Shown here: positions 7,021 through 35,031 of the stretch, piece after piece
Layout of the letters: every line of letters begins with the position of its first letter
How positions within the stretch are numbered: the stretch's first letter is position 1
Origin: an uncultured Eubacteriales bacterium
Lineage (GTDB): Bacteria > Bacillota > Clostridia > Monoglobales > Monoglobaceae
Length of the DNA stretch: 36,254 bases
NCBI GenBank assembly: GCA_958346135.1
Contig: CATVQN010000001.1
Coordinates: 1-36,254, forward strand
Reading direction: 5' to 3'
Translations under genes and position numbers: made by a program
Notes under the pieces: generated by a model
The model's input: only the letters and a program-made list of their open reading frames with translations
Databases searched by the model: none
Told to the model about the DNA's origin: nothing

Positions 7021-7032
7021 GCTGGACGCTCG

Positions 7033-9233: not shown

Positions 9234-9290
9234 GAGTATATGTCCTTTCTATGTATTCATGTTTAGGGTATCATCCCGGACAAATCTAAA

Positions 9291-9335: not shown

Positions 9336-9373
9336 AAGATGCGGTACACGGGAGCAAATAACGAAAGATTTTG

Positions 9374-9530
9374 CAAGCAATGGAAAGGGATATCCTTTTG
9401 CCCTCCACCCCTTATGGGGCGGAGGGCAGAAGTTTATCCCTTTCCGCTTGTTGGGGAGTTCCCCAAGCCCCCGGCAGAGTGCTGGCGCAACTCTGACCGA
9501 ACACCACATAATTGTGGTGGCTACGCTTCG
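9374..9530. other. Candidate oriT region (cluster of inverted repeats next to relaxase gene)
   Basis: Long imperfect hairpin 9382-9445 containing TATCCTTTTGCCC, palindrome TTGGGGAGTTCCCCAA, CACCACATAATTGTGGTG hairpin; adjacent to MOBP relaxase. Confidence 0.5.
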
Positions 9531-9538
9531 CTTATAAA

Positions 9539-9583
9539 AGAAAAAACCGGAAGCTGGACACTATGCCACGGCTTCCGGTTTTC
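9539..9583 (-). terminator. Intrinsic terminator after relaxase
   Basis: AAAACCGGAAGC / GCTTCCGGTTTT stem with A-tract on left. Confidence 0.75.
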
Positions 9584-9591
9584 CTAATACC

Positions 9592-11013: not shown

Positions 11014-11032
11014 ACAGCGGCTCCTTTCTGTC

Positions 11033-11072
11033 AAAAGTAAGGGCACGGCAGCTTGAAAATACTGCCGTGCCC
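11033..11072 (-). terminator. Intrinsic terminator-like hairpin between mobC and relaxase
   Basis: GGGCACGGCAG / CTGCCGTGCCC 11-bp stem followed on minus strand by TTACTTTT. Confidence 0.6.
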
Positions 11073-11158
11073 GGTTGGGGTTATGCTGTTAAATTGCCTT
11101 TCGCATACTGTTTATATCGTCTACTTGTTCTGTCAGCCAGACAGCCGCCCCCGGCGGT

Positions 11159-11497
11159 TCACAAATCCTCAAACTTGGAGAGCAGGGAGCTGAACGCTCC
11201 CCACAGTTCTCCGTATCTGGTTTTTAAATCTGCGATGTCCTCCCCATACAGATTGCCGGTGCTGTTCACACGCCTTGCGATCTGGTTCAAATTGTTGGAG
11301 CAGGTGCGCAGCAGGGCGGCCAGTTCCTTAACGTCTGTCATATCTACCCGGACAACGTAGCCGTCCACCGCCATTTTTCTGAGGTACGCCCTCTGGTTGT
11401 GCGTGCCGAGCAGTTCCATCTTTTTGTCAATAATCTCTTTTTCTTCGGGCGATACCTTGAAATACAAGGGAATGGTGCGCCCACTGCGTGGATTCAT
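11159..11497 (-). CDS. mobC: MobC relaxosome accessory protein
   Basis: RHH-like N-terminus, YLRKMAVDGY, NNLNQIARRVN; TAATG overlap with helicase stop. Confidence 0.92.
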   Translation of the reverse strand: MNPRSGRTIPLYFKVSPEEKEIIDKKMELLGTHNQRAYLRKMAVDGYVVRVDMTDVKELAALLRTCSNNLNQIARRVNSTGNLYGEDIADLKTRYGELWGAFSSLLSKFEDL

Positions 11498-20400: not shown

Positions 20401-21027
20401 GTCGATATAGAGGGAAGCGTCCAGCCCGCAGCGGGTTAAAACCGCATACTGGACGCTGGCTTTTATGGTGTCACGGAAAATGACCTCTATGTTGTGGTCG
20501 TCCAGTCCCTCTAAAAAGCTGTCCTCCACCTCATAGTGCAGGTCACGGAGATATTCCCCATAGTGTTCCTCCGACACCTTTGAAGCCGCTTCCATCAGGC
20601 ACTCGCCCAGGTCGCCGCCCTCCGGGATACCGAACGCTTTTGCCAGCCGTTCCATAACCGGGGCATGATAGGCTTCCTCCATTCTCCAAAGCCACGGGTC
20701 TTTGCCGCCTTTTACCCTATGAGTATCAGAAACATCGTGGACGTTCTGGATATAGGGCCTGCCGCCTGTGCCTTTGCGGATCAAGCCGATTGCATTGGAA
20801 CCAGCGGTGACCCAGCGGTGCATCTTGTTATTCCACGTTTCAATGTCCGCACAGGCGACTGCATCCGGGCGCTGGATATAGATTAAAAGCTGGTCGTCAA
20901 AATCATAGCTTTTATAAAACCGGGATGCCGTGGTTAGAAACTTCTGCCAGTTTTCCGGTGTTCTTGTGACTTCCTGCTGGGCTTTCTGCGCCAGCTCAGA
21001 AATATACAGAAACCATCTGTTTGCCAT
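11497..21027 (-). CDS. Giant polyvalent protein: ArdC-like N-terminus, repeated accessory domains, N6-adenine MTase, SNF2-like helicase (DarB-like)
   Basis: [12 protein letters not shown] (MTase motif I), GNVPFG (motif IV), [28 protein letters not shown]-terminal W..FL.TASRFY.Y.F..QLLIY.QRP; AAAGGAGG RBS. Confidence 0.92.
19809..20168 (-). CDS. tnpV: TnpV-family protein (119 aa) nested in the +1 frame of the giant helicase gene
   Basis: MSELTY...GYQIPN...[12 protein letters not shown]...L.AHL.EID..A...[34 protein letters not shown] is the TnpV pattern; AAAGGAG RBS 8 nt upstream. Confidence 0.85.
20215..20243 (-). promoter_or_regulatory. Internal sigma70 promoter for nested tnpV
   Basis: Minus strand TTGCCA (20243-20238), 17 bp, TATAAT (20220-20215), about 46 nt upstream of the tnpV ATG. 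Confidence 0.75.
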
Positions 21028-21042
21028 TGTGACCTCCTTTCA

Positions 21043-21086
21043 AACGAAAAACACCCAGAACCTGCTTTTTTACAAGTTCTGGGTGT
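21043..21086 (-). terminator. Intrinsic terminator immediately upstream of the helicase RBS
   Basis: ACACCCAGAAC / GTTCTGGGTGT 11-bp stem then TTTTCGTTT on minus strand. Confidence 0.7.
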
Positions 21087-21105
21087 AGTTTACAAATAGG
21101 ATTCT

Positions 21106-21330
21106 TTAATAATTTTGTTTTGCCTGTTCCGATAAATGGCGGATCAATTCTTCTGGGGTTGGGATTTCTCCCTTGCATGGAACACGGCTCTGATAGGCTT
21201 TGGTTATCTCGTTATTATTTAGTGGATTGGTATATGCGTCCGTAATAGCAGCCTGCATTTCCCGCTTGACTTCTTCCACGCTGACACCGTATTCTTTCGC
21301 TACTTTCCGGTATATCTTCCTCATGTTCAT
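21106..21330 (-). CDS. Small Spo0A C-terminal-domain-like DNA-binding protein (74 aa)
   Basis: IYRKVAKEYGVS.EEV.REM..AI..A and PTPEELI resemble the Spo0A effector HTH; AGGAGG RBS. Confidence 0.7.
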   Translation of the reverse strand: MNMRKIYRKVAKEYGVSVEEVKREMQAAITDAYTNPLNNNEITKAYQSRVPCKGEIPTPEELIRHLSEQAKQNY

Positions 21331-21375
21331 AAAAGTTTCCTCCTAAGTAAATACTGTAATCGCCTGAATGATTCG

Positions 21376-21404
21376 ATTATAAGCGATAATAACACTCGTT
21401 TCAA
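21376..21404 (-). promoter_or_regulatory. Sigma70 promoter for the Spo0A-C-like gene
   Basis: Minus strand TTGAAA (21404-21399), 17 bp, TATAAT (21381-21376). Confidence 0.75.
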
Positions 21405-21478
21405 TAGAAACAGGCGTTACAATCGCTCGGTTTTGGCTTCGGCGTGACTTATGATTATCTACAAGGAGGGAGCAGCAA

Positions 21479-21796
21479 ATGGAAGAACAATTTATTCGTG
21501 ACCGGCTTTCCAAACTTCGGGAAGAAAAGCAGGTTTCAGAACGAAAAATGAGCCTGGATTTAGGACACAGCACCAGTTATATCCGTGGCATCACATCCGG
21601 CAGGTCGCTCCCGTCTATGAGCGAGTTCCTTTATATCTGTGAATACTTAGGTATCACACCATCAGAATTCTTCAAAGAAGAAAAAGAAACCACTTTGACC
21701 CAACAAAAAGCGATTGACTATATCTATACCATGACGGATGAGGACATCCAGTTACTAATTGGATTTATCGAACGGATGAAGCACACAGACGAATAA
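21479..21796 (+). CDS. XRE/Cro-C1 family HTH regulator
   Basis: RL..LREEK.VSE.KMSLDLG.S.SYI..I.SG...PS......IC.YLG.TP.EFF; AAGGAGG RBS. Confidence 0.9.
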   Translation: MEEQFIRDRLSKLREEKQVSERKMSLDLGHSTSYIRGITSGRSLPSMSEFLYICEYLGITPSEFFKEEKETTLTQQKAIDYIYTMTDEDIQLLIGFIERMKHTDE

Positions 21797-21831
21797 CAGG
21801 CGGTATCTGAAAAGAACGGACACCGCCTGTT
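21795..21831. terminator. Bidirectional terminator between convergent genes
   Basis: AACAGGCGGT / ACCGCCTGTT inverted repeat. Confidence 0.7.
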
Positions 21832-21833
21832 TC

Positions 21834-22121
21834 TTATTGTCGGCGTTCTTTATTTTTCCGGTTCATATCCTCCAAAACCTTTTTCTGTGCTTCAGACAAC
21901 ACCCTGGGCGGGGCAATCTTAACCCACTTCTTGGGAAGTGAGTATGTCAGACCGCCGTAGCCATTGTCGCCAGTCTGCGTGACCTGCTCCGGGTGGCTCT
22001 GGTACAAGCTGTTCAGCGTGTTCTGCAAGCCTGTGTTGTAGGTATAAACCGCAGCAGTGGATTCACTCTCATTAAAGAGGATGATCGTTTCCTGCTCATA
22101 CTTTGTTAATCTCATAGGCAT
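21834..22121 (-). CDS. Conserved ICE hypothetical protein
   Basis: LTKYEQETII.FNE...A.VYTYN and PKKW.....PR pattern seen in Firmicutes ICE backbones; TAATG coupling to upstream gene. Confidence 0.8.
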   Translation of the reverse strand: MPMRLTKYEQETIILFNESESTAAVYTYNTGLQNTLNSLYQSHPEQVTQTGDNGYGGLTYSLPKKWVKIAPPRVLSEAQKKVLEDMNRKNKERRQ

Positions 22122-23194
22122 TACCTCTCCAAATCTTTCCGCTTCGCCGGGGGCTTGGCTGCCGTATGCTGTTCCGGCTTTTTCGCAAGCTGCTCCCGGA
22201 TCGAGGGCTTTTTTTCCGTTTTCTTTTGCGGCTGCTCCCTGGAAAAATCTTTTTCCCGCATCTGCCTAAAAGCGGTGATCCTGCCGGTTTCATCCGTGAC
22301 GGGGGCATACATCTTCGGAATCTTAAACATCATGCCGTCCAGACTGATGCCGCCGTAGTAATTCCCGTGGGCGTCCCGTTCTTTCTGAAGCAGCACGGTC
22401 TTATCGGCAAGGATAAAGCCCTCCATTTCATGCTTATAGACCAGGCCACAGGGAATCCCGCCAGACTGGGTAAGGGCGATTTCTTTGCCCACCGGCTCAA
22501 AGGGATTCTCCACCGGCGCATCCTCCACCACACGAAAAGCGGTAGGCTTGCCCCGTTTGCTCCGCTCGGCAACTTCATAGATATGGGCATCAATGTAACT
22601 GCCGTTTACCCTGCGGTTGGAGGACTCATAAAAATCCGGGTTGGACGCACAGGGCGTTAAAAGGATGCCGCCTTTGACAATGTACTGATCCTGGGTAATC
22701 TCACCGGGTTCGATATACCGCTCAAAGCGGTTGACCGGCACGACCCGTAGAAGCGGCGTTTCCGATTTTTGTTTCAACACCTCATTTGCCGTTACTGGTT
22801 CTTCTTTTTTGGCTGTTTCCTCCTGGACAGATATGTTATTGATAATGCCGTCAATCATGTTATAATTCTGTTCCATGCTCATTTCTGCATATTTTATAGG
22901 ATTTTCCTCCAATTCCATAAATGGAAAAGCAGCACCGTAATGCTTTCCCAACTGCCGGAGGGATGTCAGGGTATGTTCTGTCAACACAGAACTGGTTCCA
23001 TCTTGGTTATATACAATCGCATCATTCAAGAGAAATTTATAGAAATTTTTTCCCGTCCATTGACTGTCTGCGTCTTTTGCAAATATCCGCCCATCTTTTG
23101 TGTGGGAAAGGCGGATGTCATAAATTTTCAAACGGTCAAGGGTGGTATAAAGGATGTCAATCTCATCTTCCAACAATGTTTTGATGTCCATCAT
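22121..23194 (-). CDS. DUF4316-containing protein
   Basis: ENPIKYAEMSMEQNYNMIDGIINN signature; C-terminal KKPSIREQL...KRKDLER tail. Confidence 0.8.
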   Translation of the reverse strand: MMDIKTLLEDEIDILYTTLDRLKIYDIRLSHTKDGRIFAKDADSQWTGKNFYKFLLNDAIVYNQDGTSSVLTEHTLTSLRQLGKHYGAAFPFMELEENPIKYAEMSMEQNYNMIDGIINNISVQEETAKKEEPVTANEVLKQKSETPLLRVVPVNRFERYIEPGEITQDQYIVKGGILLTPCASNPDFYESSNRRVNGSYIDAHIYEVAERSKRGKPTAFRVVEDAPVENPFEPVGKEIALTQSGGIPCGLVYKHEMEGFILADKTVLLQKERDAHGNYYGGISLDGMMFKIPKMYAPVTDETGRITAFRQMREKDFSREQPQKKTEKKPSIREQLAKKPEQHTAAKPPAKRKDLER

Positions 23195-25297
23195 TTACCC
23201 CTTTCCTTGAATTTTCTGTCTGGGCGGCAGCTCGATCTTGTAATTCACATACTTTTCTCCGCTATCCGCCAGCACCACCACAGCATCATAGAGTACGCCT
23301 TTTTTCTCGCTGAACAGACCTTTCATCTTGATACGCCCATTCTTTAAGAGCGCCGCCGCCATCGGTTTGGTCAGTTCCTTGTGCTTGGAAGTGAAAAAGC
23401 GATCGTTTTTCCACATGGAAAACTGGCACTCCCGGTTGGAGCAGTAAAAATTCTTCTTGCCCTCCAGCACATCAGAGCCGCATCGGGGGCATTTCCCGAT
23501 AACCTCCCTCTGTTGGAACAGGGAAGTATCCGCTTTGACGGCACTGTACTGGGCAACCAGATCGGACACCATCTGTTCAATGCCGCCCATAAACGCATCA
23601 GGAGCCTGCTCGCCTCGCTCCACCGACTTTAAGTCAGCTTCCCACTGGGCGGTCAGCCTGGCGGACTTCACGCTGTCCGGCAGCACCACAATCAGGTTGA
23701 ACCCCTTTTTTGTGGGAAGAAGCTGCCTGCCCTTGCGTTCCAGGAAACCGCCACGCACCAGCTTTTCCAGCACACCGGCACGGGTGGCAGGTGTGCCCAG
23801 GCCCGTGCGCTCTGCGCCCTCGATCTCGGCAAATTCTTCGGCGCTGGCGTGTTCCATAGCTGATAAAAGCAGATCTTCCGTGAAGTGCCGGGGCGGGCTG
23901 GTGGTTCCCTCTTTGGTAGAAGCCCTGACCTTTTCAAAGGTCTGCCCCTCTGCAAGCGGCGGCAGGGCTTTGGCATCCTCGTCCTTGGGATCATCCTCCG
24001 GCTTCTTTTTCAGCGTAGCAAAAAAAACCTGTTCTATCTCCTTAAAACCGGGCGATACCACCACACGCCCCTTTGCCGTAAATGTAGCGCCGCCGCAGAG
24101 AAGAACAACGGCGGTATCCTCATAAAGATGTTTTTCCCCCACAGCACACAACAGCCGCACCGTTACCAATGTCAGGATATTGCGCTCCCCGGCAGGAAGT
24201 GAGGAGAGATCAGCACCGGAAATCTGCTTTGTGGGCAGTAATGCGTGGTGGTCGCTGACCTTGCCGTTATTGATGACACGGGGCGTATCCACGCTGAGAG
24301 CCGCCACGGAAAACGGCAGGGCGGACGCCGCCAGCTCACACAGCGCCGGAATGGTGTCTTTCATATCCTCCGTCAGATAGTTGGAATCCGTCCGTGGGTA
24401 GGTCAGCAGCTTTTTCTCATACAACGCCTGGGCGTAATCAAGCACCTGCTGGGCCGTATATCCAAACAGCCGGTTCCCGTCCCGTTGAAGCGAAGTCAGG
24501 TCATAGAGCTTGGGCGGCTGTGTGGACTTCTGCTTCTTTTCCACGGACTGCACAACAGCCGCCTGCGTACTGCAGGCGGCTGAAAGATGGTCGGCGGCTT
24601 TTCGGTTCTCACACCGTTCACTGGCGGCGGTAAACTTCCCGCAGTCCAGCACCACCGTATAAAACTTTTCCTTTTTAAAATCGGAAATGGCAGTTTCCCG
24701 GTCTACTACCAGGGCAAGGGTCGGGGTCATAACCCTGCCGATGTTCAAAGTTTTCCGGTACAGAGAAGAAAACAGCCTGGTGCCGGAGATGCCCACCAGC
24801 CAGTCCGCCTTGGCACGGCACAGGGCAGCTTCATACAAAAGGTCATAATCTGTGCCGGGGCGCAGGTTCTCAAATCCCTCCCGGATTGCGGAATCTTCCA
24901 TACTGCTGATCCACAACCGCTGAAAGGGCTTTGTGCATCCGGCATGGTCATAGACCAGCCGGAAAATCAATTCCCCCTCACGCCCCGCATCCGTAGCGCA
25001 CACAAGGCTTTCCACATCCGGGCGGTTCATCAGGGAAACCAGCACCTCATACTGGTCTTTTTTATCCGGGGCCACCGTGTATTTCCATTCTTCCGGGATA
25101 ATAGGCAGATCTTCATAGCACCATTTGGAATACCGGGCATCATAAGCGTCAGCCGCCGCCAGCCCGATGAGATGCCCCACACACCAGGACACCACATAAC
25201 CGTTTCCCTGCAAATATCCCTGTCCACGTTCCTTTGCGCCCAGCACAGCGGCTAAACTCTGCGCCACGCTGGGCTTTTCTGCAATTACTAATTTCAA
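23195..25297 (-). CDS. topB: Type IA DNA topoisomerase III (ICE-encoded)
   Basis: LVIAEKPSVA, ATDAGREGELI (TOPRIM), LTYPRTD catalytic Tyr, GLGTPATR, C-terminal CPRC zinc ribbon. Confidence 0.95.
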   Translation of the reverse strand: MKLVIAEKPSVAQSLAAVLGAKERGQGYLQGNGYVVSWCVGHLIGLAAADAYDARYSKWCYEDLPIIPEEWKYTVAPDKKDQYEVLVSLMNRPDVESLVCATDAGREGELIFRLVYDHAGCTKPFQRLWISSMEDSAIREGFENLRPGTDYDLLYEAALCRAKADWLVGISGTRLFSSLYRKTLNIGRVMTPTLALVVDRETAISDFKKEKFYTVVLDCGKFTAASERCENRKAADHLSAACSTQAAVVQSVEKKQKSTQPPKLYDLTSLQRDGNRLFGYTAQQVLDYAQALYEKKLLTYPRTDSNYLTEDMKDTIPALCELAASALPFSVAALSVDTPRVINNGKVSDHHALLPTKQISGADLSSLPAGERNILTLVTVRLLCAVGEKHLYEDTAVVLLCGGATFTAKGRVVVSPGFKEIEQVFFATLKKKPEDDPKDEDAKALPPLAEGQTFEKVRASTKEGTTSPPRHFTEDLLLSAMEHASAEEFAEIEGAERTGLGTPATRAGVLEKLVRGGFLERKGRQLLPTKKGFNLIVVLPDSVKSARLTAQWEADLKSVERGEQAPDAFMGGIEQMVSDLVAQYSAVKADTSLFQQREVIGKCPRCGSDVLEGKKNFYCSNRECQFSMWKNDRFFTSKHKELTKPMAAALLKNGRIKMKGLFSEKKGVLYDAVVVLADSGEKYVNYKIELPPRQKIQGKG

Positions 25298-25485
25298 GCT
25301 GTTTTCCTCCTTTCGCTCATCAGCTTTTTGTAGCAGATACCCACACAGCGCCGCCCCTTGCCATAACCACAGTCATAGCAGGGGGAATCGGGGGCAGGTG
25401 CCGGCCTTTCCTCCGACACCTGCCGCCCAGCGGGTTTCTGCTGCATCATCCGTTCCAGTCTTGGGTTATCAGAAAACAAGGTCAT
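25294..25485 (-). CDS. Small Cys-rich hypothetical protein (63 aa; start moved to ATG 25485)
   Basis: MTLFSDNPRLERMMQQKP...CYDCGY....CVGICYK; GAGGG RBS; overlaps both neighbours (translational coupling). Confidence 0.65.
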   Translation of the reverse strand: MTLFSDNPRLERMMQQKPAGRQVSEERPAPAPDSPCYDCGYGKGRRCVGICYKKLMSERRKTA

Positions 25486-27466
25486 CGTCGCCCTCGATGG
25501 GAATGTCCTCATTATCTTCCTCATAAAGCCTGCGCTGTTCGGCTTCTTCTTCCTCGGAAAGTTCCTCCTGACCTGCATCCTCGCCGGTTGCTTCCTCATC
25601 TTCGTTGACGGCAGGCTCCTCCGGCCCCTCAAACTCAAAATCGTCGATGTCCTCGGCATCGTCCAGATCATGCTTCGGCTTATAAACCTTGAAGTAATAG
25701 CCCAGGCCGCCAGCCGCCAGCGCAATCACAATCACAAGGAATATCATGCTGTTACTGCTCTTGGGGGCGGGCTGCTCCGGTTCGGGTTCCGGTGTTTCCG
25801 GTTCTGACGGTTCCTCCGGCTCGGCAGGAGCGGCGGGTTCCGGCTCTGACGGTGCGGTCGGTGTGACAGTCTGGCTGTCCGTGTCTTTTTGTGCCAGCGC
25901 CATCAGGTCGCTTTCCGTTACGGCATTGAGGAAATACACATTTTCGCTGTCACGCTGCTTGTCGATAATAAGGTAAAACACATTTTCATCCGGGGTCATA
26001 ATGGTATAGAACTCCTTGCCCTGTTCATCGCTAGCGTTATCAACCACCGTGGCGCTGCCATCCGGGGTAAACGGGTTATCCTCCGTTTCCTCCGTGGCAA
26101 CCGGGCTTACCGCAGACGGGTCTTTTTCGGTATCCGCTTTATTAGAGGAAGAAATAGTGCCGCCGGTAGGCTTTGCCGTCTGCCCGGTAGAAGCAGTCCC
26201 GCCAGTGCCAGACTGTGAAAGCGTGGTGCCGGTGCCCCCGCCCGTGGGCGTTGTAACCGTGGATGCAGGGATAGACGGACTGGTGGGAGAACTGGAAGTC
26301 TTATCGCTGTCTTTTTTCGGTTCCTCATAATAGGGATTGTTAAGCTGGGTCATGCGGCTTTTATTCCCGGCACGGTCAGTGGCCTGGATCGTGATCTGCT
26401 CATAATTGTCCGCATAATCTTTCAGGCGAATATCCAGAGTGCCATTATTCAGCTTGGAAAAGGAATTACCGCAGACGTAGATTTTATCCACGCCGGAAAG
26501 GTCATCGCTTGCTTCCACACGGAGCAGCTCGCCCTCAATCCCCGCACGGATCGTCGGGGCTTCCCGGTCAAAGACCTCAATGTAACGGTTCTTGGTGTGG
26601 GACTTCCCGTTTTTATCGGTCACGGTCACATAAATAGTGCAGTTTTCGGAGATTTCCAGGGATACCTTGTCTTTATCCACCAGATCGTCCGTTAAATCAA
26701 TCCAACTGCCGCCGCTGTTGATTTTGGCTTCCACGGTATCCCAGCCGGTTTTATTGACATCCTTAATGCGGATTTCCACGTTTGCCCGATTGGTGTACCA
26801 GCCATCCGGGGCAAGAATGGAAATGGTAAACTTGGGGTCAACCACTTCCGGCTCCTTGCCCTCGCATTTTGTCAGGTCATTCTTGCAGATCTCGCAGCCT
26901 GTATTGACCGCACCAGCGGCACATTTATCGGTGCAGGTGCATTTTTCCGGTTCGGCAGGCTGTTCCGGCTCCGTGGGCGTATCCGGTTCCGTAGGCTGTT
27001 CCGGCTCCGTGGACGTATCCGGTGCTTTCCCGATGCACTGTGCCCGGTCAGACTGGCAGACAGCACAGTCAGGATTCACCGCACCCTCCTGGCACAGAAC
27101 CGTGCAGATACAAGCTGCCGGTTCTCCTGCCGGGGGAGCGGTACACAAATCCATATCGGCAGCACAGGCGGGGCACTCGGTATTGTGATCGTCCTTGGTG
27201 CATTTCTTCTCGCAAAAGCAGGGCAGCATGTTCGGCTCTGCCGCCTGCCCTTTGCAGGCATCGGCATTTCCCTTGCACACCGGGCATTCCTGATTGGGAT
27301 TTTCCACCGAGCATTTCGTATCACAAATGCAGGCAGGCGCATCGTTGCCCGATACGTCCTGCGCCGCAGCCATGCCCAAAAGGGGCATCGTCAAAAGGAA
27401 GATGGAGAGCATCATGCAGACCATTCCGGTCAGCCGCTTACTCCGCTTCATGTTCAGATTCTTCAT
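25469..27466 (-). CDS. DUF4366 (CD1107-like) surface/membrane protein with four Cys-rich repeats (start moved to ATG 27466, 665 aa)
   Basis: Signal peptide, 4x six-Cys repeat, Ig-like region, S/T/G linker, KEFYTI.T..ENVFYLIID..R..ENVYFLN.V.E.DL (DUF4366), TM anchor, acidic tail. Confidence 0.88.
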   Translation of the reverse strand: MKNLNMKRSKRLTGMVCMMLSIFLLTMPLLGMAAAQDVSGNDAPACICDTKCSVENPNQECPVCKGNADACKGQAAEPNMLPCFCEKKCTKDDHNTECPACAADMDLCTAPPAGEPAACICTVLCQEGAVNPDCAVCQSDRAQCIGKAPDTSTEPEQPTEPDTPTEPEQPAEPEKCTCTDKCAAGAVNTGCEICKNDLTKCEGKEPEVVDPKFTISILAPDGWYTNRANVEIRIKDVNKTGWDTVEAKINSGGSWIDLTDDLVDKDKVSLEISENCTIYVTVTDKNGKSHTKNRYIEVFDREAPTIRAGIEGELLRVEASDDLSGVDKIYVCGNSFSKLNNGTLDIRLKDYADNYEQITIQATDRAGNKSRMTQLNNPYYEEPKKDSDKTSSSPTSPSIPASTVTTPTGGGTGTTLSQSGTGGTASTGQTAKPTGGTISSSNKADTEKDPSAVSPVATEETEDNPFTPDGSATVVDNASDEQGKEFYTIMTPDENVFYLIIDKQRDSENVYFLNAVTESDLMALAQKDTDSQTVTPTAPSEPEPAAPAEPEEPSEPETPEPEPEQPAPKSSNSMIFLVIVIALAAGGLGYYFKVYKPKHDLDDAEDIDDFEFEGPEEPAVNEDEEATGEDAGQEELSEEEEAEQRRLYEEDNEDIPIEGDDDLVF
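26946..27023. repeat. 36-bp coding tandem repeat (about 2.2 copies; PDT(S/P)TEPEQP(T/A)E linker)
   Basis: Units 26946-26981 and 26982-27017 differ at 3 positions. Confidence 0.85.
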
Positions 27467-27704
27467 GTTCGTTATCCTCGCTTTCCATAAAATCAGGCGT
27501 CCCGGCTTTAGAGCCACGGAACGCCTTGATAAATGCTGCCAGTTCCTCCGGGGCTACATCCAGCCCGCGAACCATACCGACAATCTCCATATTTTCCAGT
27601 TCGGTCTTTTGCTGCTCCAGTTCCCTAAGCCGGGTCTGCTGGACAGCGATTTTTTCTTTTACCTTGTCGATCTCCGACAAGACTTTCTGCAACTTGTTAC
27701 TCAA
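27438..27704 (-). CDS. DUF4315 family protein
   Basis: KL.K...EIDK.KEKI...Q.RLRELE.QKTELEN.EIV..VR coiled coil; AAGGAGG RBS; canonical position. Confidence 0.88.
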   Translation of the reverse strand: MSNKLQKVLSEIDKVKEKIAVQQTRLRELEQQKTELENMEIVGMVRGLDVAPEELAAFIKAFRGSKAGTPDFMESEDNEHEESEHEAE

Positions 27705-27716
27705 ATCAAAACCTCC

Positions 27717-29444
27717 TTAATTTAATCTGCCGATGGCATAGAAATGCTGCGACCAATAGCTGCTGTCAGTCCTTGCGTACTGGATGGGCGACCCACAGTG
27801 AATCATCATATTGTTGCCGACGTAGATTCCCACATGGCTCACTGGCCCTGGGGAGTTATAAGTGCCAGTAAAGAAAATAATGTCGCCGGGCTTGGCTTCT
27901 GACATTGGAATATGGGCGCATTGGTTATAAATGCCCTGGGCGGTGGTGCGGGGCAGGTTGTGAACGCCACTGTGCGTGTAAACGTAGCATACAAATCCGC
28001 TGCAATCGAAGCTGGTGCTTGGAGAAGAACCGCCCCAAACGTAGGGGAACCCTAAGTATTTTTCGGCTTCTGCGATCAGTGCGGCAAAATCAGGGTCAGC
28101 CAGGGCTTCCCCCGGAATGTCGTAATCTTCACCGGTGCTTTCATTGGCGTAAATATCGCTGCCGAACAGATAGGGCTTATTCCCCTTTAAGGAAAGGGTG
28201 GCCGTATAGCGTTCTTTCTGCTCCTCGTCCAAGTTCTCCAGGGCAACCGCCCCGAACCCTTTATTTCTAAGGGTCACATAGAGGATGTAATACTCATATT
28301 CCTCCTCATCCTCCGTGGTTTCCCCTGTTTCCGGGTCGGTGGAAGTAACCGTGCGGGTTCTGATCTCCACCACCTCACGGGTGGTCAGGCTGTACTGCCT
28401 GTCGAACATGGCTTCCAGTTCTGCCTGCACCTGTGCAGGCGTAAAAGCGTCAAACTTTGCCGTCAGATAGGAAATCAGTTCATTGGGGTTATGCCCGATG
28501 CTGTCCACATCGTACCGGTATTCATCATAGCCGGGGTGGGTGCGCTCGATGTTCGCCAATTCATTTTGCAGAGCGGTTTCCAGGGCGGTGTAATTGGCTT
28601 CTGTCTGAATGATGTCGGGATCTTCCGAAGTGTAGGAAGTGCCCAACACGGCGCTCATGGCTCCATCCATCATCACAGAGCAGGAAGAAAGGGACGAAAA
28701 CACCATAATAATCAGCATGGCAATCGCACCAGCCATCACCAGCCCGCCTTTATGCTCCTGCACCGCAGTCGCCACGGTCTGACCGATGCTGCCAAACATA
28801 TCCTTTGCTTTCTGGACAAATGCCGACCCCTGTTTCTCAGCCTGCTTTGCTTTCCGAAACTCTTTGGCATACTGGCGCTTGATGCGCTGTTTCTGAATAA
28901 GACGTTTGACGGCGTTTTCCTGCAATTCCGGGTTATCCCGGACAGCGGCACGATAAGCGGCACTGACATTCGCCCGGTTGACCTGGGCTTCCAGCTTCTC
29001 CACACGCTTATACGGGGCGTTCTGCCGGTACTTGCGGATTTCATGGCTGGCGAGAGCAGCGGCCCCCTCAGACGCAAGCTCTGTCCGATGGGCGGCTTTC
29101 GTACCCACATTTTCTTCCTCCACCTGATGAATCTTGGAGTGGACGGTGGCGCTGGCACTCTGTACCATGCGCCTGCCCGCCTTTTTCGGCAGGGCTTCCT
29201 GCCCTCGTTTTTTCTCCACTTCCTCAAACCGGAGTGTGTGCTTCAGCCTGCTTTTTTCGGGATCAAGTTCTTTTTGCAAGCGCAGCTTTTTCTTCTTAGG
29301 CACTTTCTTTTTCGCCTTTTCCAGCTTCGTGCCCAAAACCTCCGCCTTGTGTTCCGCACGGGCAGCCCGTTCCTCCGGGGTGAAATTCAGCCGTTTGCTG
29401 CGCTCCACATCGTCAGCATCGTAAATATTGGCTTTTTTCTTCAT
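27717..29444 (-). CDS. Conjugation cell-wall hydrolase, NlpC/P60 (CD1108-like)
   Basis: Basic N-terminus, TM segment, KYLGFPYVWGG...FDCSGFV...HVGIY....MIH. Confidence 0.92.
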   Translation of the reverse strand: MKKKANIYDADDVERSKRLNFTPEERAARAEHKAEVLGTKLEKAKKKVPKKKKLRLQKELDPEKSRLKHTLRFEEVEKKRGQEALPKKAGRRMVQSASATVHSKIHQVEEENVGTKAAHRTELASEGAAALASHEIRKYRQNAPYKRVEKLEAQVNRANVSAAYRAAVRDNPELQENAVKRLIQKQRIKRQYAKEFRKAKQAEKQGSAFVQKAKDMFGSIGQTVATAVQEHKGGLVMAGAIAMLIIMVFSSLSSCSVMMDGAMSAVLGTSYTSEDPDIIQTEANYTALETALQNELANIERTHPGYDEYRYDVDSIGHNPNELISYLTAKFDAFTPAQVQAELEAMFDRQYSLTTREVVEIRTRTVTSTDPETGETTEDEEEYEYYILYVTLRNKGFGAVALENLDEEQKERYTATLSLKGNKPYLFGSDIYANESTGEDYDIPGEALADPDFAALIAEAEKYLGFPYVWGGSSPSTSFDCSGFVCYVYTHSGVHNLPRTTAQGIYNQCAHIPMSEAKPGDIIFFTGTYNSPGPVSHVGIYVGNNMMIHCGSPIQYARTDSSYWSQHFYAIGRLN

Positions 29445-29455
29445 GGCAGACCTCC

Positions 29456-31888
29456 TTATGCTGCCAAATCCGCAGGCTTCGTGGTCATAACCTGGTACAA
29501 CTTCGTATCCGTGGGGAACTTATCAACAAAGGGAATAATCTTATCTCCAAAGAACAAAAGCCCCTCACCGGCATCACTGTTCGTGATGTGACCCAGCTCC
29601 TGGGGAGAAATACCAAGACGCTGCGCCAGAATGTTCCGGTCACTGGCCGCCTGGTTCAGCATCAGGATAAAATCGCTGTTTTCCAGGATATTTTCAATCT
29701 CCGGGCTTTCCAGCAAATCCTTGACGTTCTGCGTTAGCGATGTCGGGATGCCATTCCATTTTCGGAATCTCTTGTAGATTTCTGCGGTGTAGGCTGCCGT
29801 CTGCGGCTCCTTCAAAAGCAGATGGAACTCATCTAAGTAGATGCGGGTGGTCTTTCCGGCATAGCGGTTTACAATGGTGCGCTGCCAGATATTATTCTGG
29901 ACAGTCAGCATACCAGGCTTTTTCAGGTTCTGCCCCAGACCACTGATGTCATAGCAGGCCACACGGTTATCAACATTGACGTTGGTTCGGTGGTTCAGAT
30001 AATTGAGGGAACCAAACACATACAATTCCAACGCCGTGGCAAGTTCCTGTGCCTGTTCTTCCTGCTGTGCCCGCAGGCACTCATACAAATCCCCCAGGAT
30101 CGGCATATTTTCCGGTCTGGGGTCTTTGATGAGCTGGCGGTAGATTTTCGGGATACAGCGGTCAATGACCGATTTCTCAATAGGCTTTAAGCCGCCCTGA
30201 GCGGCGGACAAAATCAGTTCACAGAATGACATGATAAAGTCCGCTTTCATCAGAAGCGGATTCTCGCCGGTATTCGTGGTCAAATCTACATCCAGCGGAT
30301 TGATATAATCGTGGCTGTCCGGGGCAAGCCGGATCACCTGTCCTGAAAGCTGCTGGCACAGGGAAGTATATTCATTCTCCGGATCGAGGAACAAAATGTC
30401 ATCCGTGGTATGCAGATAGACGTCTGCCGCTTCCCGCTTGCAGCTAAAGGATTTACCGGAACCGGGAGTGCCAAGCACCACTCCGTTGGGGCACTTGAGC
30501 GTTTTGCGGTCAGCCAGAATCATCCGGTTTGTGGTGGCGTTTAACCCATAGTAAACGCCTTTGGGCTGGAATACCTCACAGGCACGGAACGGCAAAAAGA
30601 TTGCCGTCCCGCTGGTAGTAAGCCCACGCTGGATTTCCACCTGGTTGATGCCGATGGGCAGCGCAGACACAAAGCCCTGTTCCTGCTGATAGTCCAGCCG
30701 GATCAGATCGCAGTTCTGGGTATTGGTAATGCCGTTTGCGGAGTAAATCAGATTTTCCAGCTTCTGACGGCTGGACGCCGCATGGACAACCAGGATTGTG
30801 ACCATAAACATTTTCTCGTCATGGTTCTGCAAATCCTCCAAAAGTTTCTGGGCTTCCTTGCCGAATGTCACAAGGTCGGGCGGCAGGATGTCCATATCAA
30901 AACCGGAGCGGACAGCCCGTTTTTGTTCGTCGATCTTTGCCTTGTCCAGATCACTCAGCTTGCGCTTGACTGCTTTCAGAGCGGCATTCTGGTCGAGGGC
31001 TTTGGCATGGATGCTGACGATCTGGCTTCCCTCCATGTTCAAAATGCTGTTTAACAGCGTGTCATACAGTTTGGTCGCCCGGATCTGCAAAAAAGAAACC
31101 GCCCCGAAAGATGCGCCGGAGCGGAAATAGCGCCCATCCTTGAAGAAGAACGAGCTGGGGGCAATATAGTCTTTGCTGGACAGCCCTGTGTGCTTTAAGG
31201 AATCCCAGTTAAAACGGAACTTCCGGTTTTCCTCCAGATGCAGGCACCGATGAAGAATCGTCAGCCGCTCATAACCGTCCATCGGATGTGCGGCAACCGT
31301 CAGGGCACGGAAATGCCCCACCACATCATTGTCGATCTGCTCCAGGCGGGAACGGGCCTGCCTGATGCCGTCTGCTTCGATAGTATAGGTCAGACAGATA
31401 CGGCGCTCATACCGGCTCTTGGAAACCTGCCGCACCAGCATATCGCTGTATTCCTTTCGGATTTCATCGAACTGGTCGCCCTGGGGGTTAAGGGCAAGCA
31501 TTTTCCGGTATTCCACCAGGTCTGCCGGATAGCAGATCACGGAAAGTTCAAAGCCCACAGACGGCCCGAAATAGTTGACCAGCTTGCAGTAAAGCTCAAA
31601 CAAAACCGCCTTTTCATCGTCAGACGCTTCGGCATAGTTGATGTCGTCACAGAGGACGCTTTTACTGTAAAGCCGGTTCGTGATGCGGCAGATGCCGTCC
31701 GGGTACATTTCTTCATAGGGAATGGTCTGCTGGGCGGTCTTTGCGATTTTACCCTCTTTTTTTGCCCGCCGGATTGCCTTTTCCACACGCCTTTTGTCGG
31801 CGGCGGTCAGCTTGGTGTCGGGCCGGATCACGAGATGTTCCCAGCCCACGGCTGTTCTTGCCGGTGGTTTTGTTCTGAATGGAAACAA
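29456..31888 (-). CDS. virB4: VirB4-like conjugal transfer ATPase (start moved to TTG 31888, 810 aa)
   Basis: Walker A GTPGSGKS, LDPENEY, YLDEFH, RFRKWNG...TQN; AGGAGG RBS 9 nt upstream of TTG. Confidence 0.93.
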   Translation of the reverse strand: MFPFRTKPPARTAVGWEHLVIRPDTKLTAADKRRVEKAIRRAKKEGKIAKTAQQTIPYEEMYPDGICRITNRLYSKSVLCDDINYAEASDDEKAVLFELYCKLVNYFGPSVGFELSVICYPADLVEYRKMLALNPQGDQFDEIRKEYSDMLVRQVSKSRYERRICLTYTIEADGIRQARSRLEQIDNDVVGHFRALTVAAHPMDGYERLTILHRCLHLEENRKFRFNWDSLKHTGLSSKDYIAPSSFFFKDGRYFRSGASFGAVSFLQIRATKLYDTLLNSILNMEGSQIVSIHAKALDQNAALKAVKRKLSDLDKAKIDEQKRAVRSGFDMDILPPDLVTFGKEAQKLLEDLQNHDEKMFMVTILVVHAASSRQKLENLIYSANGITNTQNCDLIRLDYQQEQGFVSALPIGINQVEIQRGLTTSGTAIFLPFRACEVFQPKGVYYGLNATTNRMILADRKTLKCPNGVVLGTPGSGKSFSCKREAADVYLHTTDDILFLDPENEYTSLCQQLSGQVIRLAPDSHDYINPLDVDLTTNTGENPLLMKADFIMSFCELILSAAQGGLKPIEKSVIDRCIPKIYRQLIKDPRPENMPILGDLYECLRAQQEEQAQELATALELYVFGSLNYLNHRTNVNVDNRVACYDISGLGQNLKKPGMLTVQNNIWQRTIVNRYAGKTTRIYLDEFHLLLKEPQTAAYTAEIYKRFRKWNGIPTSLTQNVKDLLESPEIENILENSDFILMLNQAASDRNILAQRLGISPQELGHITNSDAGEGLLFFGDKIIPFVDKFPTDTKLYQVMTTKPADLAA

Positions 31889-32240
31889 GTTGTTGTACCT
31901 CCTTTTCATAGTGTGCCTGCCGCTCCAGGGCGGCAAACCGATTGTTGGTCTGGTAAGGTCTGGCCGCAGGTGCGAGCAGCCGGACACGGATGATATTTTT
32001 CAGAATCTTTTCCAAAGGCTGCCCGTTCTTCTCATACAGCCCGAACAGCATAAAGGGCGCTGCCAGGGCAATCAGAAGAAGCAGGGCAAGGTCATTCCCC
32101 AGGGAGTGCCGGGTCAGGAAGTAAGTGCCCACGCCTGCAATCCCGCCCAGGGAAAAGCAGACAATCTGGCGCTTGGTCAGCCCAAAAGCCACCTTGTCCT
32201 TAACCTCGGTCAAGTCTTTGGTAATCGTCACATAAGCCAA
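31749..32240 (-). CDS. prgI: PrgI family protein
   Basis: KDLTEVKDKVAFGLTKRQ..CF, two TM helices, YEKNGQPLEK; overlaps virB4. Confidence 0.9.
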   Translation of the reverse strand: MAYVTITKDLTEVKDKVAFGLTKRQIVCFSLGGIAGVGTYFLTRHSLGNDLALLLLIALAAPFMLFGLYEKNGQPLEKILKNIIRVRLLAPAARPYQTNNRFAALERQAHYEKEVQQLVSIQNKTTGKNSRGLGTSRDPARHQADRRRQKACGKGNPAGKKRG

Positions 32241-32263
32241 TCGAAACCCTCCTTTCTCAAAAC

Positions 32264-33133
32264 TTAGTGTGCGTTTAGGATGCTTTTCGCCACGGAGCCG
32301 GTCTTAAACAGGCTGAAGCACAGAAGCACCGTGTAGGCGGCGCAGCTCCAGATGGAAGCCTGCAAATCCCCGCCCAGGGAAAGAGCATTGACCAGCACGG
32401 CATAGATGCCGACACAGATCATGATTAAGAATCCTTGCAGCCCCAGGGCGGCAAGCCCCCGGACGTAGTTGGTGCCGATGTTGCCCCATTCCCGGTTCAT
32501 AAAGGTGGCAAAGGGCAGCGGGCCGACACTGGCGTAAATATAAATTTCAATCATCCTGCCATACAAAATGACCGTGATGATAAGCCCCATCGCTTTCATG
32601 GCAAAGGATACGACCCAGGTTTCCAGCATCAAGGCAAATAGATCTCCCAGCCCCGTGGCCTGAAGCTCCGTCGTGATGTTGGCGATTGCAGAGGAAATGT
32701 CGATGCTGGCGTTGGTATCTATGACACCGGCACTCCTTTGAACCATTGTCTGCGCAACCTGGAAAATCGCCATGATGAAATCAAAGGTATGATTAACGAT
32801 GATTGCCGCCGCCGCTGACTTGAACGCCCATTTGAAGAACATAAAGGTATCAATGTCGTGCATATTGTTCTTCTCGATAATCATGGAAATCAGTTCATAC
32901 GTCAGGACGGCGGCGATCACAAGCCCCGCTATGGGGACTACCACATTCTTAGACAGCGTAAGAATAATGGAAAAGACGCTGGAGTTCCAGGACTCCGGCG
33001 TCTTTCCCACTTCGGTTGCGATTGTGGCGACCTTGCTGTTGACATCGCTAAACATACTCGACAGATTGCCAGTGATGGCTCCGATTAAGAAGTCTTTCAG
33101 CCACTGTTCAATGGCGTCGATTATGCTTTGCAT
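32264..33133 (-). CDS. virB6: VirB6/TrbL-like polytopic conjugal transfer protein
   Basis: Multiple TM helices, EKNNMHDIDT, GRMIEIY...V.P.PFAT..N.EW..IG.NY. Confidence 0.9.
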   Translation of the reverse strand: MQSIIDAIEQWLKDFLIGAITGNLSSMFSDVNSKVATIATEVGKTPESWNSSVFSIILTLSKNVVVPIAGLVIAAVLTYELISMIIEKNNMHDIDTFMFFKWAFKSAAAAIIVNHTFDFIMAIFQVAQTMVQRSAGVIDTNASIDISSAIANITTELQATGLGDLFALMLETWVVSFAMKAMGLIITVILYGRMIEIYIYASVGPLPFATFMNREWGNIGTNYVRGLAALGLQGFLIMICVGIYAVLVNALSLGGDLQASIWSCAAYTVLLCFSLFKTGSVAKSILNAH

Positions 33134-33152
33134 AAGCCGCTACCCGTGCCGA

Positions 33153-33371
33153 TTAGACGGTAATCAGGCTGGACAGCAGCGGAACCACCTTCAGGCCGAG
33201 AAGCATAATGCCGCCGCCCGCCATAAGCTGCTTGACACCCTGGCTTTTGGAAGCAGGGTTGTCGGCTCCGTAACCTTCCATGAGGTTGACCACACCCCAT
33301 ACGCCAACGCCGCCGCCCAGGGCAACAACCAGAGTAGACATCGTAGAAACAGCAGTCGTAAAGAAACTCAT
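33153..33371 (-). CDS. Maff2 family protein (VirB2-like pilin/membrane subunit)
   Basis: LV.ALG.G...WG..NL.EGYG.DNP..KSQG.KQLMAGGG signature; AGGAGG RBS. Confidence 0.92.
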   Translation of the reverse strand: MSFFTTAVSTMSTLVVALGGGVGVWGVVNLMEGYGADNPASKSQGVKQLMAGGGIMLLGLKVVPLLSSLITV

Positions 33372-33394
33372 AATAAAATCCTCCTACAATATAT

Positions 33395-33640
33395 TTGTGG
33401 GTAGCCTCACGGCATCCAGTCGTGTTGCTATCCAGCTTGTTGCCTAAGCTGTAGAATAAGAATGTAGTGGCCTGACACGATAATCCCTGGACTCACACGT
33501 CCGTCAAGGAGTCAGTCAGCCGCCGTTCTTATTCGCAGCATTCGATTTACGCAGGTAGTTCCACCGCAAAGCGGTGCGTTCGTGTTACCCAGGAGATTGA
33601 ACAAGCAATAAGTAAAAGGCGGAAGCCATTGCAAATTCAA
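33395..33640 (+). ncRNA. Putative IS110 bridge RNA (ends approximate)
   Basis: Nested stems with two internal loops carrying matches to the target (ATAATCC 33480-33486; TCAAGGA 33504-33510) and donor (GCAGG 33551-33555; AGGAG 33591-33595). Confidence 0.72.
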
Positions 33641-33656
33641 ATTGGGAGGAAAACGA

Positions 33657-34883
33657 ATGACCGTAGTTGGAATCGATGTTTCTAAGGGTAAGAGTATGGT
33701 AGCTGCCATGAAGCCCGGTGGGGAGCTTGTTGCAGCGCCATATGAGGTAAGGCATTCAGATATTGAACTGTCGCGCCTTGCGTTGGATGTTCTTTGCATG
33801 GAGCCAGATACCCGCGTTGTAATGGAAGCAACCGGCAGATACCATGAGCCGGTAGCAGCGCTGCTTCACAGTGAGGGAATCTTTGTGAGCATCCTAAACC
33901 CATTGCTTATTAAGCAAAGCGGAGCAGGCTCTCTGCGCAAGGTAAAATCCGATCCGAAGGATGCTCTTAAAATTGCTAAATATGGGCTTGACAACTGGTC
34001 TACATTGCGGGAATATACTCCTACGGAAGCAATTAGACAACAACTCAAGCTGTGCGAACGTCAATGCGACTTGTATAGCAAGAACATTGTCATGCTCACA
34101 AACAACCTTATTTCTTTGTCTGACAAGACCTTTCCGGGTGTAAACGAGCTGTTCTCAAGCCCCGAAAAGGCAGACGGACATTTGAAGTGGGTAGATTTTT
34201 ACAGAACCTTTTGGCATTGCGACTGCATTAACCGTATGTCACCGGATGCTTTTGGAGAGCGATACAAGAAATGGTGCAAGAAAAAGGGCTACCATTTTAG
34301 TGCTGATGCGACAAATGCTCTCTACGCAGCCAGCTGCGGACTTTACACCACGCTGCCGCGTGACAACAATGCCAAGTTACTGGTTACGGTTGCCGCCGAC
34401 CAGCTTATTGCACTGCGCGAAAACCAGTCCAAGCTGGAAGCCGAGATGCTGAATCTCTGCAAGCAGCTGCCGGAGTACGAGACCGTTATGGCCATGTATG
34501 GCGTTGGGAAGTCCACTGGGCCGCATCTCATGGCTGAATTAGGTGATATTCGCCGTTTCCCGCACCGCAGTTCTATTGTGGCCTTTGCAGGCGTAGACCC
34601 CGGCGTTGTTGGCTCCGGCAAGATGCAGCTTTCCAGTGTGGCAACTTCCAAGCGTGGATCACCTCAATTGAGAAAAGCACTCTTTCAAGTGGTTTCTACT
34701 TACGTCAAACGCAAACCCAAAAACGAGGCGGTTTACCAGTTCTACGCCAAAAAGCGTGACGAGGGAAAGCCTTTCTTCGTTTGCACTACCGCTGCTGCGA
34801 ACAAGTTCCTGCGTATTTACTATGCCCGTGTCAAGGAGTGTCTGAACGCTGCTGAAAGTGCAGTTCAAACCGAAGAAGGCTAA
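33657..34883 (+). CDS. IS110 family DEDD recombinase/transposase (start moved to ATG 33657, 408 aa)
   Basis: VGIDVSK, MEATG, KSDPKDA (D-E-D-D), GVG, AELGDI.RF, AGVDP...SG (Ser), SKRGS..LR; GGAGG RBS. Confidence 0.95.
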   Translation: MTVVGIDVSKGKSMVAAMKPGGELVAAPYEVRHSDIELSRLALDVLCMEPDTRVVMEATGRYHEPVAALLHSEGIFVSILNPLLIKQSGAGSLRKVKSDPKDALKIAKYGLDNWSTLREYTPTEAIRQQLKLCERQCDLYSKNIVMLTNNLISLSDKTFPGVNELFSSPEKADGHLKWVDFYRTFWHCDCINRMSPDAFGERYKKWCKKKGYHFSADATNALYAASCGLYTTLPRDNNAKLLVTVAADQLIALRENQSKLEAEMLNLCKQLPEYETVMAMYGVGKSTGPHLMAELGDIRRFPHRSSIVAFAGVDPGVVGSGKMQLSSVATSKRGSPQLRKALFQVVSTYVKRKPKNEAVYQFYAKKRDEGKPFFVCTTAAANKFLRIYYARVKECLNAAESAVQTEEG

Positions 34884-34953
34884 TTTGTAATGCTCATTTT
34901 GTCATTTGGCTGCCTCCGATTTTTGAGGGAGTCCTGTTTGCTGTACGCATTTT

Positions 34954-34981
34954 TACTCGGCTATCTGCCGAGTATTTTTTT
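34954..34981 (+). terminator. Intrinsic terminator in IS110 right end
   Basis: TACTCGGC-N5-GCCGAGTA then T7. Confidence 0.7.
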
Positions 34982-35031
34982 GCGATTTTTTATGGAAACC
35001 TATTGACTTTTATTTGCAGGACTCCTTGAAT

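Follow-up and report, generated by a model that had tools for sequence, protein, structure and literature searches.

The stretch of DNA under study, here called the window, comprises 36,254 nucleotides (nt) of contig CATVQN010000001.1 (GenBank assembly GCA_958346135.1) from an uncultured Eubacteriales bacterium of the family Monoglobaceae. Near its right end lies an insertion sequence (IS) of the IS110 group, 1641 bp in length (33381/83..35021/23), which consists of a left non-coding end (LE) with the features of a bridge RNA, a gene for a recombinase and a right non-coding end (RE), and which is inserted in front of the minus-strand gene of a Maff2-family protein (Table 1). An earlier sequence-only reading had interpreted the locus as an intact IS110 element whose bridge RNA spells out its own insertion site, and all the features that it described were found where it had placed them. 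Our analysis reveals a real and intact bridge-RNA IS110 element, which adds a new, well-supported member to a known system and not a new system. Its activity is probable from sequence comparison, and in the reading as a whole, that of an intact and recently active IS110-group bridge-RNA insertion sequence, our confidence is high.

Table 1. Features of the insertion sequence and of its insertion site, in window positions
Feature	Position	Strand	Remarks
Target gene, Maff2-family protein, 72 amino acids (aa)	33153..33371	-	Pfam Maff2, 122.4 bits
Left target half (LT) AAAATC	33375..33380	+	Empty site; AAATC shared by the sites of other copies
Left CT core copy (crossover dinucleotide)	33381..33382	+	Only sequence common to both junctions across all relatives
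Left non-coding end (LE), 274 nt	33383..33656	+	Opens with right donor CCT (33383-33385); ends conserved in 54 related loci
Predicted junction promoter, -10 box TACAAT	33385..33390	+	TTGACT-17 nt-TACAAT when RE is joined to LE
Bridge RNA, 5' hairpin	33404..33428	+	3 of 10 pairs changed on both sides
Bridge RNA, body	33436..33612	+	Outer stem 33436-33444/33604-33612 encloses target- and donor-binding stem-loops; 4 of 7 pairs changed on both sides
Target-binding stem-loop	33448..33539	+	Stems 33448-33464/33524-33539 and 33469-33476/33515-33521; hairpin 33489-33502
Left target guide (LTG) ATAATCC	33480..33486	+	Same sense as target top strand, AAAATC + core C
Right target guide (RTG) CAAGGAG	33505..33511	+	Reverse complement of CT + CCTTG
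Donor-binding stem-loop	33541..33601	+	Closing stem 33541-33548/33594-33601; hairpin 33562-33576
Probable left donor guide (LDG) GCAGG	33551..33555	+	Matches right-end terminus GCAGG(A)
Right donor guide (RDG) AGGAG	33591..33595	+	Reverse complement of CT + CCT at left-end junction
IS110-family recombinase, 408 aa	33657..34883	+	Pfam and NCBIfam matches; D7, E57, D99, D102, S320
Right non-coding end (RE), 138 nt	34884..35021	+	Terminator-like hairpin 34954-34974, then T run
Predicted junction promoter, -35 box TTGACT	35003..35008	+	
Left donor (LD) GCAGGA	35016..35021	+	
Right CT core copy	35022..35023	+	
Right target half (RT) CCTTG	35024..35028	+	

The insertion is a precise addition of 1641 bp. 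The empty site had been reconstructed as AAAATCC-TCCTTGA, and metagenome contigs bear this out: a query with the unbroken window stretch 33361-33384 returned 47 contigs, and in all of them the sequence after ...AAAATCCTCC goes on as the right flank of the window from 35026 (identity at 39-41 of 41 bases), and the left end of the IS follows in none of the 47. Because every one of these contigs joins the left flank directly to the right flank, the empty site is a real and common allele. The pentamer CTCCT is present at both junctions (33381-33385 and 35022-35026); relative to the empty site only CT(CCT) is repeated, and there is no target duplication beyond this short core. On the minus strand the left junction reads GGAGG (33380-33384); 8 nt separate it from the start codon ATG of the Maff2 gene (33371), which lies 9 nt past GGAG, and the IS therefore sits in the Shine-Dalgarno (SD) sequence of this gene.

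The ends agree with those of the IS110 group in that terminal inverted repeats are lacking (the inverted match from end to end reaches at best 5 nt), in that LE is longer than RE, and in that a promoter is predicted to be rebuilt across the RE-LE junction of a circle. No sub-terminal inverted repeats were found in the element ends. The putative promoter would bring TTGACT and TACAAT to a distance of 17 nt, a spacing that is kept in 22 of 22 distinct end pairs; some lineages have lost a base beside the core, which is balanced by an extra T further in, and thus the spacing is still 17.

The recombinase proved as intact as had been claimed, with an open reading frame (ORF) and all catalytic residues kept. 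It combines an N-terminal RuvC-like DEDD domain with a C-terminal Tnp domain carrying the catalytic serine, the architecture of the IS110 group: it matches the Pfam families DEDD_Tnp_IS110 (PF01548, 92.8 bits) and Transposase_20 (PF02371, 66 bits) as well as the NCBIfam model NF033542, 'IS110 family RNA-guided transposase' (192.5 bits, cut-off 140). A phmmer search matched the transposases of the IS621 (8wt6) and ISCro4 (9t56) structures with E about 5e-13, the alignment falling into two stretches, one in the RuvC-like part and one in the Tnp part. D7, E57, D99, D102 and S320 align with the catalytic positions of IS621, and all five are conserved.

Relatives of the element were collected in a scan of one genome per species, which gave 125 encoding stretches, 80 of them kept (loci are given here as L numbers). 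Most come from Oscillospiraceae-type gut Clostridia. The same left terminus was found in 54 loci, representing 42 unique left ends, and the termini are nearly invariant: the right end has TTGACT and 13 nt ending in GCAGGA, followed by CT, and the left end begins with CC-TACAAT. At least 14 copies (L031, L033-L041, L045, L046, L048, L061), in three left-end variants, are present in the complete genome of Bengtsoniella intestinalis BP47G; ten of these copies have an identical left end and lie at ten different ribosome-binding sites (RBSs), with 0-3 mismatches by eye.

Much closer copies of the window element are present in Logan contigs of four runs from four studies (X2, X4, X5 and X8), with 0-12 differences per about 1650 bases and none listed in the guide-bearing region 33375-33720. 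In run X2 the site is AAAATC-CTCC-TT between ...GTTA on the left and TCCCGCG on the right; in run X4 it is AATAAAATC-CTCC-TTG between ...CCATAA and TAAACAG. Run X5 gives the right-hand part only, CTCC-TTG followed by TATATAT, and run X8 the left-hand part only, ...CATAATGG followed by AAATC-CTCC. The sequence-only reading had stated beforehand that other copies at unrelated sites would speak against it; these near-identical copies lie at AAATC-CTCC-TT(G/T), that is, at related sites. Their presence at other sites implies recent movement.

An alternative is that the window copy is a fossil of a former bridge system and is no longer mobile. Several observations point in this direction: the genome of the window (78% complete) holds a single copy; no run recorded as RNA holds the element; no circle junction was found in Logan contigs, where such a junction would seldom be assembled; and the integrated left end is, by inspection, without a good -35 box. 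Run X8 was considered as RNA evidence and was not counted, its RNA-Seq label being a guess and its contig extending into flanking DNA. On the other hand, the ORF is open and codes for all catalytic residues, the guides fit the site in the window, near-identical copies occupy other sites, and the 47 contigs represent the same conjugative element without the IS. A loss of mobility is therefore very improbable in our view, and we retain the reading of a recently active element. Further searches place this copy in its surroundings: blastn against plasmids gave no match to the element; a search of 151 genomes from the same order yielded no copy of the IS, the one other match, at 71% identity, coming from 1 of the 150 others; and a left-flank search of 121 same-family genomes returned homologues of about 71-77% identity and no exact empty site, the gene order without the IS being conserved in them.

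The left end has the properties of a structured RNA, as expected for the IS110 group, and this RNA spans 33404-33612. The region 33390-33657 folds with z = -5.05, and none of 200 shuffles folds as well. From an alignment of the left ends of 39 relatives (L044 and L058 left out; L016, with the guides of L013, not included), RNAalifold predicted 62 pairs, 19 of them with compensatory changes. When 58 pairs were counted, 18 were changed on both sides, compared to 8.2±1.8 in shuffles (0/500 reach 18), and 98.0% of the cells were paired, compared to 38-45% with slid partners. An Rfam 15 scan of 33300-35100, with a library that holds no bridge-RNA family, gave only a sub-threshold anti-hemB match over the right-end terminator.

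The alignment recovers most of the stems that had been proposed from the window alone. The outer stem 33454-33464/33524-33534, the GGAC/GTCC hairpin (33489-33492/33499-33502) and CACCGC/GCGGTG (33562-33567/33571-33576) all reappear with compensatory changes; TTCGAT/ATTGAA (33541-33546/33596-33601) reappears as well, being invariant in the 39 sequences and therefore uninformative as to covariation. The stem CTGAC/GTCAG (33472-33476/33511-33515) has to be revised: it can pair in the window copy, but the segment 33511-33515 reads GTCCG in most relatives and the conserved partner lies elsewhere, the loop being closed by GGCCTGAC (33469-33476) with GTCAGCC (33515-33521). The target-binding internal loop so delimited is a 12 x 12 loop (33477-33488 x 33503-33514).

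Within the otherwise conserved left end there are two hypervariable patches, one on the 5' strand of the first internal loop and one of 4 nt before GGAG on its 3' strand. Each element's patches were compared with its own flanks, and the flanks were permuted among elements 20000 times. On the left, the LTG matches the flank at 232 of 390 positions (36 elements, 49 sites), where permuted flanks give 142.6±13.0 with a maximum of 199; the signal lies at -2 to -5, is weak at -6 and -7 and absent at -8. On the right, 153 of 198 positions match between RTG and junction (28 elements, 40 sites), against 97.9±7.4 with a maximum of 129 in the permutations; here the signal lies at the fourth base of CTCC and at +1 to +3, and is absent at +4 (9/38 versus 0.21 expected). 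Neither score was reached in the 20000 permutations (0/20000 on each side), and the guide bases thus covary with the insertion sites, as had been anticipated. For the right-side test the junctions of L009, L019, L023, L049, L024, L027, L055 and L067 were read by eye and entered by hand, and the damaged element L044/L047, whose right flank would by eye match poorly, was left out. Covariation is also seen within a single genome, in which three Bengtsoniella left-end variants with differing guides each match their own sites.

In the window copy itself, ATAATCC matches AAAATCC (33375-33381) at 6 of 7 positions, as had been noted, and the RTG matches CT+CCTTG at 7/7. TCAAGGA (33504-33510) is indeed the exact reverse complement of TCCTTGA, 8/8 when G33511 is added; T33504 also matches the target at a position that is uninformative. 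The right target guide is long, as the sequence-only reading had it, at 7 nt including the core, but its proposed first T stands where no covariation is seen. The first loop has the arrangement of the IS110 group, with the LTG in sense, the RTG in antisense and the core included, except that the LTG lacks the full core and pairs with about 5-7 flank bases and the first core base only. Guide and flank covariation, structural covariation, catalytic residues and other copies together bear out the layout of an IS621-type bridge RNA, in which a target-binding loop with these two guides is followed by a donor-binding loop. The element may, we infer, be reprogrammable.

A second alternative is that the protein itself recognises CTCC or a Shine-Dalgarno-like motif, and that the left end is merely a 5' leader that regulates transposase expression. 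The C-CT-CC of the target is nearly invariant in the clade and so carries no covariation signal (at -1 the match is 0.80 versus 0.78 expected), and the transposase gene comes immediately after the RNA. These observations would suit this alternative, but where the flanks vary, at -2 to -5 on the left and at +1 to +3 on the right, they follow the loop segments, both in the permutation tests and among the three guide variants of one genome, and the LTG of L058 (220-560) matches 10/10 of a left flank that is no ribosome-binding site and belongs to the T-arm region of a tRNA gene. We therefore consider recognition by the protein without a guide to be very unlikely. Chance similarity in an AG-rich, SD-like leader, in which AGGAG-like words do occur three times (RTG, RDG and the transposase's own Shine-Dalgarno), can practically be dismissed, since, when the left end was dinucleotide-shuffled 5000 times, no more than 8 of the shuffles contained the right-guide 7-mer together with a left-guide match of at least 6/7 at 11-45 nt upstream, and the family-wide covariation already contradicts it.

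Several details of the target guides do not fit an RNA-guided choice of sites so smoothly. The significance of the permutations is overstated, as the relatives are not independent of one another. In contrast to IS621, no more than 18 of 39 relatives have T in the LTG column that faces the second core base (T); at -5 the LTG has U where A stands in each of the four sites known for this variant, a constant mismatch; and some sites match their guides poorly (e.g. L028, L021, L067). The mismatch at -5 and the column of the second core base both depart from the simple full pairing described for IS621.

Concerning the core, the 5-bp sequence that had been taken as shared between the junctions is too long. 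L009, L019, L023 and L049 differ at the fourth base between junctions, with CTCA or CTCT on the right and CTCC on the left, and distant relatives differ also at the third; position -1 likewise differs between flank and right end. As CT alone is common to both junctions across the relatives, it constitutes the recombination core, like that of IS621. The RTG tracks the right junction in L009, L019 and L023, where TGAG or AGAG replaces GGAG; in L049 it retains GGAG, the base being mismatched to the right junction. More distant relatives, with about 50% identity, have CT-ATT, CT-GTT or CT-ACT at the left junction and CT-TT... or CT-TA... at the right one, which matches the RTG at 7/7 or 8/8 in L074, L075 and L077. 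The additional CCT identity in the window is explained by right donor (CCT) and right target (CCTTG) beginning alike.

The second loop is complementary to the joined donor ends, as in the IS110 group, less clearly so in its LDG part. The RDG is a pentamer that adjoins the closing stem on its 5' side. In 30 of the 31 unique left ends caught by the search pattern it is the exact reverse complement of the left junction, and it covaries through the types CTCCT, CTATT and CTGTT, with a fourth in L063 (CTACT/AGTAG). The LDG covaries with the right-end terminus in two lineages, L024/L027 (GCAGA in both places) and L067 (GCAAG in both). Against this stand the single RDG exception, L053, and, for the LDG, uncompensated differences in 12 Bengtsoniella copies (ACAGGA versus GCAGG) and in L064/66/68 as well as a register to the core that shifts by one base between lineages. 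The donor-loop matches GCAGG and AGGAG had been put forward with the caution that they were less certain; this caution was justified for the LDG, where two lineages agree and two groups do not, and unnecessary for the RDG.

The by-product of most interest is that homing to Shine-Dalgarno sequences is family-wide. A site was scored as SD when a start codon followed 3-14 nt past a GGAG-type 4-mer and was itself followed by at least 40 codons or by a frame open to the end of the locus. This holds for 41 of 55 distinct sites, compared to 99 of 439 other GGAG in the same flanks (odds ratio 10, Fisher p = 4e-14). The clade homes to Shine-Dalgarno sequences. The remaining 14 sites count against this, several of them resembling real starts with short ORFs or sitting in another register. 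The target is the antisense of SD and start codon in a fixed orientation, as in IS900, the orientation being the same by construction of the CT-CC target. In the group of the window element the SD straddles the core (C-CT-CC), and in a distant group it lies in left target plus core (CCTCCT); the motif is therefore preserved across the shift of register. The gene next to the left end retains its SD at the original spacing in either group. SD-like words occur in the guide loops because the target is an SD: AAGGAG at 33506-33511 and CAGGAG at 33590-33595, with the transposase's own GGGAGG (33645-33650) downstream. The LTG of the distant group reads UCCUCC, like the anti-SD of 16S rRNA.

From this a broader generalisation may be drawn, to which we lean by a small measure: that the bridge-RNA IS110 elements of a clade widespread in gut Clostridia have programmable guides that stay directed at the SD, in at least two registers relative to the CT crossover (C-CT-CC and CCTC-CT-TT), and always rebuild the RBS of the neighbouring gene, an RNA-guided 'translation-start homing'. 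If this is true, the homing target is present in every genome, plasmid and conjugative element that the IS can reach, and the RBS targeting long known for IS900 gains an explanation by an RNA guide. Among the papers searched we found none with such an explanation and none linking IS900 to bridge RNA; no title was found that joins bridge RNA and Shine-Dalgarno, and of the papers containing both terms the single one with bridge RNA in its abstract mentions Shine-Dalgarno only for a riboswitch.

The mechanism that we propose is as follows. The 408-aa DEDD/serine recombinase would be guided by the left-end bridge RNA. Excision to a circle would join RE to LE, and the TTGACT-17-TACAAT promoter predicted at this joint would drive the RNA. 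The donor-binding loop would then hold the joined ends, with the LDG reading the right-end terminus and the RDG reading CT+CCT, as covariation shows for the RDG and in part for the LDG, and the target-binding loop would read a new site, as covariation likewise shows. Strand exchange would take place at the CT core, whose limit is observed and whose chemistry is suggested by homology with IS621; the same homology points to expression, the RNA ends, RNA-protein binding, circle formation and recombination. The element always lands in the orientation in which its recombinase gene is directed away from the target gene, and GGAG(G) is rebuilt at its original distance from the start codon, because the left end of the element begins with CC. 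Insertion in the RBS of Maff2 may sever this gene, and the type IV secretion system genes behind it, from whatever lies upstream.

IS621 and the bridge-RNA elements of the IS110 group are reportedly also the subject of work by Hiraizumi and colleagues from 2024. The window element is like IS621 in its DEDD and serine recombinase and lack of inverted repeats; in a long left end whose RNA comprises a 5' hairpin, a target-binding loop and then a donor-binding loop; in an LTG on the 5' strand in target sense and an RTG on the 3' strand in antisense, with a CT core; and in the sigma-70 promoter predicted across the RE-LE junction. It differs in the size of the recombinase (408 aa versus a chain of 328 residues, with similarity only at the E value given above), in the length of the RNA (at least about 215 nt versus 177 nt), in an outer stem that encloses both loops, in an RTG of 7 nt versus 4, in an LTG that reaches the second core base in only part of the relatives, in an RDG that spans only the core and 3 nt, and in its target, which is a Shine-Dalgarno sequence and not a repetitive extragenic palindromic (REP) element. 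Durrant et al. (2024, PMC11208160) already describe a CT core and a sigma-70-type junction promoter for IS621/IS110 elements and long RTGs for some IS110 orthologues.

The likeness to IS900 is one of description: both are IS110-family elements with an RBS-antisense target, a similar transposase size and no inverted repeats. IS900 inserts between RBS and start codon, whereas the window element has its crossover within the SD or at its margin, and the SD is rebuilt. A paper by Doran and colleagues from 1997 reportedly bears the title 'IS900 targets translation initiation signals...'. The target motif of IS900 of Mycobacterium avium subsp. paratuberculosis, CATGNNNNNNTCTCCTT, is the antisense of start codon and RBS, according to PMC8141618, and since this motif was already known, RBS targeting is not new for the IS110 family. 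A long antisense ORF, hed, is described as spanning IS900, whereas no hed-like antisense ORF crosses the window element, in which the longest stop-to-stop antisense frame has 117 aa.

Within the same transposase family, the IS1111 group and its seekRNA likewise choose their sites by an RNA guide, according to Siddiquee et al. (2024, PMC11187229). As described by Durrant et al. (2024, PMC11208160), the RNA of this group lies in the right end and its sub-terminal inverted repeats measure 7-17 bp; the window element, with its RNA in the left end and no inverted repeat above 5 nt, does not belong there. An IS110 bridge-RNA element from another member of the Clostridia, CazIS110-1 of Caloranaerobacter azorensis, is experimentally active according to bioRxiv 10.1101/2025.10.25.684509.

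The locus is a clean bridge-RNA system, well documented by computation, and its relatives amount to a natural data set on specificity, with about 40 guide variants and their paired sites in a recombinase clade far from IS621. These pairs reveal that 5-7 positions are read to the left of CT, followed by CT itself and by 5 positions to its right. For the building of tools, they provide another family of orthologues with a naturally long right guide. For the biology of insertion sequences, they tie RBS targeting in the IS110 family to a guide RNA, and RBSs as a class of targets matter for the spread of such elements on conjugative elements and for the silencing or uncoupling of operons.

Pfam domains place the insertion site inside a conjugative element. 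To the right of the IS lies a VirD4-like coupling protein of the CD1115 family, and to the left, all on the minus strand, follow Maff2, TrbL_2, PrgI, a VirB4-like ATPase, NlpC/P60 and a CD1107-like protein. The minus-strand genes of the conjugative element extend over 22121-36132 and also include a topoisomerase and DUF4316, and a MobA/VirD2 relaxase is found at 9592-11046; the 47 metagenome contigs hold this conjugative element without the IS. Between the two, a single minus-strand ORF of 3176 aa (11497-21027) with MutS_I, N6_Mtase and SNF2/ResIII/Helicase_C domains resembles a giant methylase-helicase of the kind often borne by conjugative elements. Two P-type ATPases, at 353-2926 on the minus strand and 4294-6156 on the plus strand, one of them with two heavy-metal-associated (HMA) domains, adjoin the conjugative element and are probably metal-resistance cargo. 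A candidate outward promoter on the minus strand of the IS (33507..33480) was rejected, because promoter-like sites number 3 compared to 1.8±1.3 by chance and the site overlaps the variable RTG.

Two relatives deviate in structure. In L044/L047, the left end diverges past the 5' half of the donor loop, and the right end has an internal deletion with the loss of bases between -35 box and terminus; with its disrupted left end this is probably a damaged element. In L058, the RTG ends in AGAG, and about 60 nt are inserted in the hairpin of the donor loop.

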